DNA of 64,000 nucleotides from an uncultured Bacillota bacterium (lineage in GTDB: Bacteria; Sysuimicrobiota; Sysuimicrobiia; Sysuimicrobiales; Segetimicrobiaceae), in the NCBI GenBank assembly GCA_963804645.1, contig CAWDRG010000001.1, positions 1-64,000 on the forward strand, read 5' to 3'. Made by a program: the position numbers and the translations under genes. Shown piece after piece: positions 33,053 through 42,592 of this stretch; positions within the stretch are counted from its first letter, which is position 1; every line of letters starts with the position of its first letter. Under the pieces are notes generated by a model. The model saw nothing but the letters and a program-made list of their open reading frames with translations, ran no database searches and was not told the DNA's origin.

Positions 33053-33970
33053 CTACGGCACGGTCAGACCCGCGCGCGGCACGAGCCACGGCAGCGGGTT
33101 GACGGGCAGCCCGTTCACGTAGAGACCCCAGTGCAGCCCAGGGCCCGTGACCAACCCCGTCGCGCCGATGCGACCCACCACGGCCCCCTGCGCGATCCGG
33201 TCCCCTTCCCGCACCGCGAACGCCGACAGGTGGAGGTACTCCGTCAGGACCCCCTGCCCGTGGTCGATGACCACCGTGTTGCCGCCGAGCGGCAGCGCTC
33301 TCGCCAGCGCCACGATCCCGGCGCTGGCCGCCGCGACCGGGGCGCCCGCCGGCGCGTCAAAATCCACGCCGGCGTGCCACCACTCGCGCCGGCCGTTGTA
33401 GAAGCTCTGCTCGCCGTAAGGAGAGTCGATCGGCGCGGCGGACGGCCGCGCGAAGGCGCCGGTCCACCACGCCGTCGGCGTGCGCCGGCCGAGGACGGGG
33501 CCCAGCAGTCTCGCCTCGGTCGTGAGGTTCGCGGACGTGACGAGACCGATCGTCTGCGGCGGCAGTGTCAGGCGGCGCACCCCGAAGTGTCCCGAACCGA
33601 GGCGGATCGTCCGGACCACGCGCGTGTCCGCCGATCCCGGCCGCACGATCGCGACGCGCACGGTATGCGCGCCGACTCCCGTGTCCGGATCGGTACCGGC
33701 CAACGCCCGCCACACCCCCTCCGCGACGCTGTACGCGGGCACGGCCGACCCGTCGACGGTCACCGCGACGCGGGCGTCCGGCGGCGCGGCCACGCGTATC
33801 GCCAGCGTATCGCCCTGCACCGGCGCGTCCGGGGACACCTGCAGCGCATCGGCGCCCGTCTGCGACACTGCGGCCCCGGCCGGCGCGCCGGATGCCGCGA
33901 CCGCCACGAGAACCGCGCAGGCGAGGGCGCGCGTGCAGCGGCGCATCGCGCGCCGGTGAGCCTGCCGCAT
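33053..33970 (-). CDS. Secreted M23 family metallopeptidase
   Basis: HAGVD, IDHGQG, YLHL, TGPGLHWG; signal peptide; GGGAGGTG RBS. Confidence 0.88.
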   Translation of the reverse strand: MRQAHRRAMRRCTRALACAVLVAVAASGAPAGAAVSQTGADALQVSPDAPVQGDTLAIRVAAPPDARVAVTVDGSAVPAYSVAEGVWRALAGTDPDTGVGAHTVRVAIVRPGSADTRVVRTIRLGSGHFGVRRLTLPPQTIGLVTSANLTTEARLLGPVLGRRTPTAWWTGAFARPSAAPIDSPYGEQSFYNGRREWWHAGVDFDAPAGAPVAAASAGIVALARALPLGGNTVVIDHGQGVLTEYLHLSAFAVREGDRIAQGAVVGRIGATGLVTGPGLHWGLYVNGLPVNPLPWLVPRAGLTVP

Positions 33971-34145
33971 CGGGTCACCTCCCAACGATGGCCGAGCGCG
34001 ACCCGGGCCGCCGCGAGGCGCCGGGTGCGCAAGAGACGCGTTCGGGCCTGGTCGCGCAAGGGCCTCCACGATCGCCGGCCCCGGTGCGCCCGCGCGGCGG
34101 TGGATAGCGGGAATGCCGCCCGCGGCTGGCGCGTATACCTAAATG

Positions 34146-34483
34146 GATGCGGCCGCCCGCGATGTCGCCGAGGTAGCGGACGCGTCAGGACGGCAGTGAC
34201 CGGATGGAGGGAGAATCGCCGCGGCGTCGAATGCCGCGGTGAAAGGTCGAGGATCGGGGCGCGCCATCCCCGCCGGAGCCGGACGCGGATTGCCGAGTCG
34301 CCGCGTGTGAGCCTGGCCGCGTGCCGTCCTCGGAAAGAGCACACCCGTACTGGATGAGTGCCACGGCGCGGTCGCTTTGTGCCCGCGGCGAATGGCGTGG
34401 GTGTGCGTCTGGACTGCCTGCGCCGCGCGCATCGGGGGCACAACGTCCCCGGTGAAGACCGCGGGCGGGTCGGGAGGTGTCCC
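34146..34483 (+). ncRNA. Candidate large structured RNA / 5' leader of nadA (family unassigned)
   Basis: Nested complementary segments: 34153-61/34460-68, 34165-70/34450-55, 34171-76/34414-19, 34177-84/34404-11, 34187-95/34322-30, 34216-26/34232-42, 34342-46/34399-403; G-U pairs favour the + strand. Confidence 0.55.
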
Positions 34484-35542
34484 ATGGTCGTAGCGATGGC
34501 ACGCGAGACGTCCGCGGACGCGATGTACGCGGAGATGAAGGCGCGGCTCGAGCGCGTCGTGCCGGACGTCGAGCTGCGCCAGAAGGCGGTCCTCGCGTGC
34601 GAGATCAACCGCCTCAAGCGCGAGCGGAACGCGGTGATCCTCGGACACAACTACATGGAGCCGGCCCTGTTCCATTCGATCCCCGACTACACCGGCGATT
34701 CGCTGGAGCTGAGCCGCACGGCGGCCGAGACCGATGCGGCCCTCATCGTGTTCTGCGGCGTGCAGTTCATGGCGGAGACGGCGAAGATCCTCAACCCGAC
34801 GAAGACGGTCCTGCTGCCGGCCGCGCGGGCCGGCTGCTCGCTCGCGGCCAGCATCACCGCCGCCGACGTGCGGGCGTTGAAGCAGCGGTTTCCGGGCGTC
34901 CCGGTCGTCACGTACGTCAACACCTACGCCGACGTCAAGGCCGAATCCGACATCTGCTGCACCTCCAGCAACGCCGCGGCGGTCGTGGAGTCCTTGGGCG
35001 TCGACACGGTCATCTTTCTTCCGGACGAGTACCTCGCCAAGAACGTCGCCCGGGAGACCGGCAAGCACGTCATCTTTCCGAGCATCCTCAGCCAGCCGGC
35101 GGCGCCCGCCGGCGTCGACTACCAGCTGATCGGCTGGCACGGCCGGTGCGAGGTGCACGAGCAGTTCCAGGTGGGCGACATTCACGCGATCCGCCAGCAG
35201 TTCCCGGACGTCCTCGTCCTCGCCCATCCCGAGTGCAGCCCGGAGGTGGTGGCGGCCGCCGATTTCTCCGGCAGCACGACCGCGATGATCAAGCACGTGG
35301 AACGGAGCTCCGCGCCCCGCTACCTGCTGCTGACCGAGTGCGCGATGGGAGACAACGTCGCGGCGGCCAACCCCGGGAAGGAAATGCTGCGGCTGTGCAG
35401 CGTCCGGTGCCCGCACATGAACCAGATCACGATGGAGGACACGCTCCGCTCCCTCCAGCGCACCCAGTACGTGATCGACGTCCCCGAGCCGATCCGGGTG
35501 CGGGCGGCGCGCGCCGTCGAGCGCATGCTGGCGGTCGGCTGA
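34484..35542 (+). CDS. nadA: Quinolinate synthase
   Basis: ILGHNY, GDSLELS, FCGV.FMAETAKILNP, YVNT.A.VKA, AHPEC, CPHM; GGGAGGTG RBS. Confidence 0.96.
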   Translation: MVVAMARETSADAMYAEMKARLERVVPDVELRQKAVLACEINRLKRERNAVILGHNYMEPALFHSIPDYTGDSLELSRTAAETDAALIVFCGVQFMAETAKILNPTKTVLLPAARAGCSLAASITAADVRALKQRFPGVPVVTYVNTYADVKAESDICCTSSNAAAVVESLGVDTVIFLPDEYLAKNVARETGKHVIFPSILSQPAAPAGVDYQLIGWHGRCEVHEQFQVGDIHAIRQQFPDVLVLAHPECSPEVVAAADFSGSTTAMIKHVERSSAPRYLLLTECAMGDNVAAANPGKEMLRLCSVRCPHMNQITMEDTLRSLQRTQYVIDVPEPIRVRAARAVERMLAVG

Positions 35543-35580
35543 CCGGACGCCGGAGCGATCAGCCCGCCGACGGGAGCGCG

Positions 35581-36435
35581 ATGCCTGACGCACGCGTCAA
35601 CGGAGTGCGGCTCCACTACGCGGTGACCGGCGAAGGATTCCCGCTGGTGTTCGTCCACGAATTCGCCGGCGACGGCCGCAGCTGGGACCCCCAGGTCCGG
35701 TGCTTCGCCCGGCGCTACCGGGTCGTCACGTACCACGCGCGCGGCTACCCTCCCTCCGACGTGCCCGAGGATCCGGCCGCGTACTCCCAGGACATCGCGG
35801 TGGCCGATCTGCACGGCCTGCTGCGGCATCTTGGGATCGCGCAGGCGCACCTGTGCGGCCTGTCGATGGGCGCATCCACCGTGCTGCACCTCGCCCTCCG
35901 GCATCCGGAGATGGCGCGGGCGCTCGTGGTCGCCGGGTGCGGATCGGGGTCGGACGACCCGGAGGGATTCGCGCGCGACTCCGAGGCGCGGGCGCGGACG
36001 ATCGAGCGCGACGGCATGGAGGCGTTCGCCGCCGAGTACGCGCTGGGGCCGACGCGCCTCCCGTTTCGGCGGAAAGACCCGCAGGGCTGGGGCGAATTTC
36101 GCGACGCCTTCGTGCGGCACTCCGGGCCGGGCAGCGCCCGCACCCTTCGCGGCGTCCAGGCGCGCCGGCCCCCGCTGTACGCGGCCGAGCAGCCGCTCCG
36201 CCGCCTCGCCGTGCCGACGCTGATCGTCAACGGCGACGAGGACGAGCCGTGCCTGGCGCCGGGCCTGTTCCTGAAGCGGCAGATTCCGGGTGCCCGGCTG
36301 CTGGTGCTTCCGGACACCGGACATACCCTCAACCTCGAGGAGCCGGCGGCGTTTAACCGCGCGGTGCTCGACTTTCTGACGCTCGTCGACGCCGGTCGAT
36401 GGCCCGTCCCGGATCCGGCTCGGCAGCCTTCATAG
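35581..36435 (+). CDS. Alpha/beta fold hydrolase
   Basis: GLSMG nucleophile elbow, GDED, GHTLNLEEP. Confidence 0.88.
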   Translation: MPDARVNGVRLHYAVTGEGFPLVFVHEFAGDGRSWDPQVRCFARRYRVVTYHARGYPPSDVPEDPAAYSQDIAVADLHGLLRHLGIAQAHLCGLSMGASTVLHLALRHPEMARALVVAGCGSGSDDPEGFARDSEARARTIERDGMEAFAAEYALGPTRLPFRRKDPQGWGEFRDAFVRHSGPGSARTLRGVQARRPPLYAAEQPLRRLAVPTLIVNGDEDEPCLAPGLFLKRQIPGARLLVLPDTGHTLNLEEPAAFNRAVLDFLTLVDAGRWPVPDPARQPS

Positions 36436-36772: not shown

Positions 36773-36848
36773 TGGTGGCCCCAGGGGAATTCGAATCCCC
36801 GTTTCGGCCTTGAGAGGGCCGCGTCCTAGGCCTCTAGACGATGGGGCC
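36773..36848 (-). tRNA. tRNA-Glu (anticodon CTC)
   Basis: GGCCCCA...CT-CTC-AA...TTCGAATT...TGGGGCC-A-CCA cloverleaf, 76 nt, CCA encoded. Confidence 0.96.
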
Positions 36849-42518: not shown

Positions 42519-42592
42519 TGGCTGGGGGAGGAGGATTCGAACCCCCGCTAACGGGTCCAGAGCCCGTCGTCCTACCGCTAGACGATCCCCCA
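42519..42592 (-). tRNA. tRNA-Gln (anticodon CTG)
   Basis: TGGGGGA...CT-CTG-GA...GGTTCGAATCC...TCCCCCA-G-CCA, 74 nt. Confidence 0.96.

Follow-up and report, generated by a model that had tools for sequence, protein, structure and literature searches.

The nadA leader and its conserved core

The window analysed here is the whole stretch of 64,000 nucleotides (nt) at the start of contig CAWDRG010000001.1 (assembly GCA_963804645.1), from an uncultured Bacillota bacterium of the Segetimicrobiaceae, and its G+C content is 70%. Its plus strand carries nadA, the quinolinate synthase gene of nicotinamide adenine dinucleotide (NAD) biosynthesis, and an M23 peptidase gene lies divergently upstream. The M23 open reading frame (ORF) stays open to 34069, and the start is likely the ATG at 33970, ahead of which a ribosome-binding site, GGGAGGTGA, can be read at 33983-33975. 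With this start, the gap up to nadA measures about 510 nt, as the first-pass annotation of the window had reported. The N-terminus of nadA (ATG 34484) is kept in three related genomes, G002, G004 and G005. In the gap, the first-pass annotation had drawn one large, strictly nested multi-helix RNA (34146-34483) and had taken it for an undescribed cis-regulatory RNA or a co-transcribed large non-coding RNA. A conserved, covarying, plus-strand element without a match in Rfam 15 is indeed present, whereas the 338-nt multi-helix architecture is not supported. In place of this fold, the real element is a hairpin with a bulge, about 87 nt long (34247-34333, plus strand), with short flanks.

The core is built from a long stem P1, a bulge of 8 invariant nt on the 5' side, and a second stem P1a that encloses the distal hairpin (Table 1). 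In the alignment of the seven sequences known to carry it, 87.5% of the cells are paired over 24 pairs, and 12 of these pairs change on both sides. None of 500 shuffles of these related sequences reaches the real value, and slid controls are 35-46% paired, with one to three double-change pairs. P1a is 100% paired, and three of its five pairs change on both sides. By our own count, 19 cells of the pair table are G-U, which fixes the plus strand for the core. The bulged stem is also the unconstrained minimum free energy (MFE) structure of five of the seven isolated cores, for which the fold z-scores are -1.53, -2.55, -4.59, -1.49, -1.28, -4.53 and -2.74. Variants within the species fall in the loop (34293, 34294 and 34299; strain and RNA contigs) or keep the pairs (34313 C>T, 34314 T>C and 34324 C>T, the last one keeping a G-U pair). 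Between the window and G004, the zone 34236-34285 is 100% identical, while the nadA DNA is about 80% identical, and the inner hairpins of the leader show only pair-preserving changes in G004. The P1a 3' arm (GUGGC) has two possible partners, the P1a 5' arm and the GCCAU at the bulge start (G005 L041, G002 L072 and others).

The 5' box, the hairpin P0 and the conserved 3' tail are accessory parts of the element. The 5' box, whose accessory role is putative, is ribosome-binding-site-like, and its GGAUGG complements the bulge bases CCAUCC. P0 is enlarged in G005 and G002 and unaligned in G006, G001 and G003. Downstream of the core, the inner five of the eight P3 pairs (34342-46 with 34399-403) are 95% paired when the window is aligned with G004 and the strain contigs. 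A small ORF or leader peptide (12 codons, from 34203) was considered and rejected: it is unconserved in G004, the substitutions are not 3-periodic, and indels of 2 nt and 6 nt occur in the 3' half.

Table 1. Features of the M23-nadA region of the window; W denotes the leader of this window
Feature	Position	Strand	Support and remarks
M23 peptidase gene	33053..33970	-	Pfam PF01551, E 1.5e-28; divergent from nadA
AT-rich patch TATACCTAAAT, possible -10 region of the nadA leader	34133..34143	+	sequence only
5' box GGAUGGAGGGAG	34201..34212	+	alignments; in 4/7 leaders (W, G004, G005, G002)
Accessory hairpin P0, 11 base pairs in the window, loop GUCGAAU	34216..34242	+	one GU-to-CG compensatory change in G004
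P1, 5' strand UCGAGGAUCGGGGCGCG	34247..34263	+	unconstrained MFE; covariation; outer part ribosome-binding-site-like (GAGGA)
Invariant 8-nt bulge CCAUCCCC	34264..34271	+	same in 7/7 species; unpaired in the MFE of 5/7 isolated cores
P1a, GCCGG 34272-76 with CUGGC 34313-17	34272..34317	+	encloses an irregular internal loop and the distal hairpin
Distal hairpin	34283-88 with 34301-06, inside P1a	+	hypervariable loop
P1, 3' strand CGCGUGCCGUCCUCGG	34318..34333	+	covariation; MFE; outer CCUC could pair with a ribosome-binding site
Conserved tail AAAGAGCACACCCGUAC	34334..34350	+	alignments; family pattern GGAAAG..GCA(N)CCCG
P3, GCACACCC 34339-46 with GGGUGUGC 34399-406, around a variable insert	34339..34406	+	G004 can form P3 too
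nadA ribosome-binding site GGGAGGTG / GGGAGGUG	34472..34479	+	sequence; same in G004
nadA, quinolinate synthase, 352 aa	34484..35542	+	NCBIfam NF006878, 345 bits; TIGR00550, 322.7 bits; both above cut-off

Outer helices of the large nested fold

All ten helices named in the first-pass annotation exist in the window, where 70 of 70 listed pairs are standard, and the closing stem (H1, 34153-61 with 34460-68) and H2 are present in the MFE. The proposed preference for the plus strand also holds, since the G-U pairs agree with it and the fold z-score is -1.80 on the plus strand versus -0.68 on the minus strand. Two RNA contigs begin at 34156-58, which makes transcription of most of the 5' arms probable, and one H1 pair and one H3 pair are changed on both sides in G004. 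As one unit, however, the strictly nested fold fared poorly. The MFE of 34146-34483, -182.7 kcal/mol, is matched by 5 of 100 dinucleotide shuffles; the nested structure as it had been drawn scores -113.2 kcal/mol, and the best fold with H1-H5 enforced reaches -170.4 kcal/mol, 12 worse than the MFE. In G004, the sole orthologous leader, 14 of the 38 outer pairs are broken (H1 3/9, H2 3/6, H3+H4 4/14 and H5 4/9, counted after aligning the window with G004 and two strain contigs). The outer helices are window-specific and have no counterpart in the five leaders of permease genes described below. The covariation that was sought in relatives is present in the smaller core, and the outer helices are not conserved. 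Moreover, H5 (34187-95 with 34322-30) is incompatible with P1, which is conserved, and the hairpin assigned to 34255-72 uses bases that form the unpaired bulge in the family consensus and has no family support.

The 5' arms of the outer helices have a different context in G004. There, a plus-strand ORF that matches ankyrin weakly and has a G+C content at third codon positions (GC3) of 0.87 terminates in a TGA, and this TGA aligns with window positions 34197-99. The region opposite these arms (34153-95) is therefore coding DNA in G004. The window segment 34107-34199 aligns to the last ~30 codons of this ankyrin-like ORF, with an in-frame stop in the window. The stretch 34107-34190 may be the decayed 3' end of an ankyrin-like gene, left when the M23 gene came upstream (tblastn E 0.4-0.5).

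Distribution of the element

DNA searches of 41 relatives and 23 family genomes found the leader in one other genome, G004, of the same genus, with 80% identity over 34077-34700. No second copy of the leader was found in its own genome, which has one copy in total. The scan of metagenomes and of genome_contigs was made with an exact 20-mer from the invariant block only. It returned two same-species metagenome contigs (L032 and L033, 98-99% identical) and, in genome_contigs, G004 together with three chance matches in unrelated organisms, of 21-33 nt only. A covariance model, R1, covering 34200-34362 and built from the window, G004 and the two strain contigs, was searched over the order (94 genomes) and gave two further matches in the genus, one of 38.9 bits in G006 and one of 33.3 bits in G005. 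A loose pattern, GCGCCATCCCCG..CCGCG, occurs in 69 of the 94 genomes, mostly at coding or chance sites, and brought new members only in G001, G002 and G003. After this pattern scan, cmsearch with R1 and without filters scored them at 24.4 (G003), 20.8 (G001) and 17.5 bits (G002). Candidates at G000:C9, at G001:C10, in G016 and in G018 were rejected as members, with cmsearch scores of 13 bits or less. Two species of genus g2 share a near-identical 79-nt stretch beginning GCGCCATCCCCG (G016:C7:39781-39859 and G018:C241:1219-1297), which is not an R1 member.

A second model, R2, was built from the seven cores and searched over the 94 genomes of the phylum, which here amounts to one class and one order; the 94 include the unpublished G034 and G062, used only for negative counts. 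R2 found exactly one copy per genome in all seven members of genus g1 (87-108 bits), these seven matches being its own training rows, and none in the 87 phylum genomes outside this genus. Rfam at the gathering threshold recognizes just two transfer RNAs (tRNAs) over the whole window. The cmscan proposed in the first-pass annotation leaves 33950-34600 empty even at E<=10.

Gene context and NAD supply

In two genomes the element precedes nadA, and in five it precedes one NCS1-family permease gene (PF02133), always on the strand of the gene that follows. The permease downstream of the element in G005 and G006 matches PF02133 with E ~1e-42, and the copies of G001, G002 and G003 precede the same permease. 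Comparison of the seven genomes reveals three arrangements. In G000 and G004, which have nadA and a strong nadC match, the element stands before nadA, and the permease was not found at E<=1e-10 (G004 being just 65% complete). G002 and G005 possess nadA, a strong nadC match and the permease; their nadA follows a nadC-like gene by ~60 nt and lacks the element, which stands before the permease. Finally, in G001, G003 and G006 (94-97% complete), neither nadA (TIGR00550) nor a strong nadC match was found, and the sole copy of the element sits on the permease. In genus g5, nadA abuts another gene.

The strong nadC match is thus confined to the four nadA genomes, and a paralogue resembling quinolinate phosphoribosyltransferase (QRPTase) is present in six genomes. 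A nicotinate phosphoribosyltransferase is present in all three genomes without nadA; in the two genomes checked, the QRPTase-like paralogue matches NF006415, a nicotinate phosphoribosyltransferase family with a cut-off of 243, at 450 bits (G001) and 443 bits (G006). The NF006415 gene lies just downstream of pgk-tpi, at L098 1822-2862 in G001 and L099 1804-2844 in G006. With PF04095, the usual model, no nicotinate phosphoribosyltransferase was found in the seven genus genomes. Since G001, G003 and G006 are without de novo synthesis, they must import a pyridine precursor, and the NCS1 permease that carries their element could import niacin or a related precursor. Collectively, the gene associations of the element point to NAD metabolism, which agrees with the link to this pathway made in the first-pass annotation.

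Resemblance to NAD+-I and other riboswitches

The excerpts of PMC6859854 and PMC7297122 describe NAD+-I (RF03013) as domains that always occur in tandem, only before nadA, in Acidobacteria. Each domain is a stem with an 8-nt bulge, ACANCCCC. According to the same excerpts, domain 1 comprises P1, the 8-nt bulge, a conserved P1a of 7 base pairs, an AGYG loop on the 3' strand, and P1b, and the AGYG/GYG internal loop pairs with the C-stack. In the excerpted structure of PMC7297122, the first bulge base, A8, stacks on the adenine of the ligand, the penultimate P1 pair, C:G, touches the ligand, and G16:C45 opens P1a. The excerpt of PMC6859854 reports that domain 1 binds the ADP (adenosine diphosphate) half only and that no binding was observed for domain 2.

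The present element is likewise a bulged stem-loop upstream of nadA. Its 8-nt bulge, CCAUCCCC, has the same length and the same strand as ACANCCCC, ends in CCCC as well, and agrees with it at seven of eight positions, the first A being replaced by C; CANCCCC is present in 7/7 leaders. Therefore, the statement in the first-pass annotation that no NAD+-I consensus could be seen was half right, as it overlooked this bulge. The flanking pairs correspond too: the penultimate P1 pair (columns 22-81) is C-G in 7/7 and the first P1a pair (columns 32-79) is G-C in 7/7. In both RNAs a further internal loop and then a distal hairpin follow, and both lack a terminator, which suggests translational control. 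Nothing in Rfam 15 matches the element, and the literature searched, as far as its excerpts extend, does not report it; it is best described as a single-domain NAD+-I variant or look-alike, tied to the supply of NAD precursors.

A precedent is offered by the ubiB motif, given in the excerpt of PMC6859854 as a variant of nadA domain 1 in Nocardia. As described there, it is domain-1-like, occurs outside Acidobacteria and before another gene, lacks a second bulged domain and has its ribosome-binding site in a separate hairpin. On the basis of this description only, the ubiB motif keeps the 7-base-pair spacing and the internal loop of domain 1 with few changes, whereas our element differs more. 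NAD+-II (the pnuC motif) controls an NAD-precursor transporter, as we propose for the five permease copies, but the excerpts of PMC7749635 and PMC10085692 give it a pseudoknot architecture, unrelated to that of the element. The literature searched, as represented by its excerpts, contained no NAD+-III class, no NCS1-linked riboswitch and no Firmicutes variant of an NAD+ riboswitch.

Transcription and expression platform

No intrinsic terminator was found on the plus strand of the four leaders scanned, which makes translational control the likeliest mode; a single terminator-like site was called in the window, at 34356-34342 on the minus strand. The strongest predicted partner of the ribosome-binding window is the P1 5' strand with the bulge in three leaders (W, -25.4; G004, -29.5; G003, -27.7) and the CUCC-like outer 3' arm of P1 in two others (G005, -30.7; G006, -27.0). 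In all seven leaders, the outer P1 is formed by a GGAG-like 5' arm paired with this CUCC-like 3' arm.

Four runs of one peat study yielded metatranscriptome contigs over 34156-34370, 34158-34339, 34271-34495 and 34290-34516, the last of which crosses the nadA start codon and has 33 nt in the coding region. None of the contigs placed covers 33800-34155. The first two contigs begin 13-15 nt downstream of the AT-rich patch TATACCTAAAT. These starts are only a weak hint, since a contig end is no proof of a transcript end and DNA may be present in the libraries. The patch is not kept in G004, and a two-hexamer promoter scan gave 0 sites in four leaders, the window included. In G001 and G003 (L073 ~1968-1978; L074, minus strand), the sequence GTTGCTATAAT, a perfect TATAAT with an upstream TG, lies ~10 nt before P1. 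It could be either a promoter, with the transcript starting at the aptamer, or a part of the RNA. As the promoter scan was empty, the TGCTATAAT upstream of P1 in these two genomes is to be taken as a reading of the letters alone.

Proposed function and alternative explanations

A covarying, conserved structure in the 5' leaders of genes of one pathway, the general criterion by which riboswitches are recognized, is what these seven leaders present. We consider that 34247-34333 is the aptamer-like core of a cis-regulatory RNA of the nadA leader, namely a single-domain relative or look-alike of NAD+-I with an NAD-pathway ligand and translational control; taken as a whole, this reading has about an even chance of being correct. 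The element would govern the gene that supplies the pyridine ring, either nadA, through de novo synthesis, or the NCS1 permease. A metabolite of the NAD pathway, NAD+/NADH or a precursor, would dock at the junction of the bulge and P1, and this docking would alter which C-rich segment pairs with the GGGAGGUG ribosome-binding site. Translation initiation would be shut off when the cofactor is plentiful. Such an OFF switch is proposed because of the analogy with NAD+-I and of feedback logic.

Several observations weigh against this proposal. The family is composed of seven related species of one genus only, and the shuffle statistics are inflated because its members are related. For G005 and G002, a slipped pairing is more stable than the bulged fold by ~1 kcal/mol and forms the MFE structure; this slipped P1a pairing may represent a second state of the switch. 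Any C-rich loop would be expected to be complementary to the ribosome-binding site, as the bulge is. The whole-leader MFE folds differ between species in the 3' half, and from this disagreement neither a common expression platform nor the direction of switching can be derived. The RNA evidence is made of contigs of a single study, whose libraries may contain DNA. As to the permease, its NCBIfam matches (ncs1, CytX and cytosine permease) are all below cut-off. In G001, a gene of the polysaccharide-deacetylase family (PF01522; L087 365-1291) follows it on the same strand; no such gene was found downstream on the permease strand in G002, G005 and G006.

The kinship with NAD+-I itself is further questioned by specific differences. 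At E<=10, RF03013 leaves the element unmatched in G000, G001, G002, G004 and G006, its matches elsewhere in these five genomes are all at or below 20.3 bits (gathering threshold 37.5 bits), and cmscan at E<=10 finds nothing at the element in L040 and L041 and nothing in 33950-34600. The element is single-domain, while NAD+-I is an obligatory tandem with the ribosome-binding site in P1' of the second domain; each of the seven leaders has CANCCCC just once, and a looser CANCCC is found in the tail of three leaders only. The first bulge base is C in 7/7, in place of the ligand-stacking adenine A8 of the excerpted PMC7297122 structure. P1a is not a clean stem of 7 base pairs, as it has either 5 pairs followed by an unpaired A (G001, G002, G003 and G005) or 7 pairs with a bulge (W, G004 and G006), and the AGYG internal loop is missing: the 3'-strand loop, GNGA, reads GUGA, UUGA, GAGA or GCGA. 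P1 is 13-17 base pairs long, far longer than the P1 of NAD+-I, and the 5' box, P0 and the tail are extra. The element also stands before an NCS1 permease (5/7), while NAD+-I stands exclusively before nadA, and it belongs to a small phylum other than Acidobacteria.

These differences leave room for a genuine cis-regulatory RNA whose likeness to NAD+-I is coincidental, i.e. a new fold that senses something else, for example a pyridine precursor such as nicotinate or nicotinate mononucleotide (NaMN), a nucleobase-like permease substrate, or a protein or tRNA partner. The failure of RF03013, the lack of a tandem domain, the divergent internal loop and P1a length, the C in place of the stacking adenine and the additional conserved parts, including P0 with its GUCGAA loop, all favour this explanation, as does the fact that five of the seven copies stand before a transporter gene whose best families are nucleobase or hydroxymethylpyrimidine (HMP) permeases. 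Nevertheless, the common length and strand of the bulge, CANCCCC in every leader, the flanking C-G and G-C pairs and the nadA target are much to attribute to chance, and the distribution of nadA versus permease and nicotinate phosphoribosyltransferase is complementary and fits NAD supply. We therefore rate coincidence as a tentative alternative, distinctly less probable than the NAD+-I-like reading as a whole. It is conceivable, with a similarly modest probability, that the element constitutes a new riboswitch class, in which the CANCCCC pocket of NAD+-I is re-used within a single domain to sense a pyridine precursor or NAD+. The A-to-C change in the bulge, the different internal loop and the extra 5' and 3' elements may then have re-tuned this pocket.

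A more distant alternative is that no regulatory RNA exists here, and that a GC-rich DNA element, such as the operator of an NAD regulator, or a neutral leftover produces pairing as a by-product of 70% GC. The GC content of these sequences (70-72%), the modest single-sequence z-scores of three of the seven cores and the narrow distribution within one genus are in line with it. However, the 12 of 24 pairs with compensatory changes, together with the collapse of the slid controls, are not expected from composition, and the 19 G-U cells would read A-C on the other strand. Moreover, the orientation to the downstream gene is fixed in 7/7, one core precedes two unrelated genes, its ~87 nt are far larger than an operator, and 34236-34285 remains fully identical between species whose nadA DNA has diverged. 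We thus regard this explanation as improbable. Least of all can we credit the whole of 34146-34483 as one nested multi-helix functional RNA, given its unremarkable z-score, the cost of enforcing H1-H5, the broken outer pairs and coding context in G004, the exclusion of P1 by H5 and the permease leaders without these arms.

NAD+ riboswitches are strikingly rare in view of how universal the cofactor is. The single-domain, NAD+-I-like element proposed here offers a case for comparison, being a lone domain with an altered base at the ligand-stacking position. It moves between a biosynthesis gene and a transporter gene according to the NAD route of the genome, which yields a testable prediction for the orphan NCS1 permease, namely the uptake of niacin or related pyridines, and bears on NAD acquisition in an uncultured phylum represented by 94 species genomes. 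Should the element prove to be a new class, it would mark an unrecognised NCS1-family importer of niacin or pyridines in this poorly known, uncultured peat-soil phylum, and a natural single-domain version would bear on the long-open purpose of NAD+-I domain 2. Its reach is limited so far to seven species of one genus.

Neighbouring features of the window

Downstream of nadA, the plus strand encodes an alpha/beta hydrolase (PF00561, E 1e-20), which corresponds to residues 389-623 of the frame 34477-36435. This long ORF was rejected as a nadA-hydrolase fusion, since it is an out-of-frame open frame resulting from the high GC content. The two tRNA genes, the sole Rfam matches in the window, are both on the minus strand, at 36776-36848 and 42522-42592.

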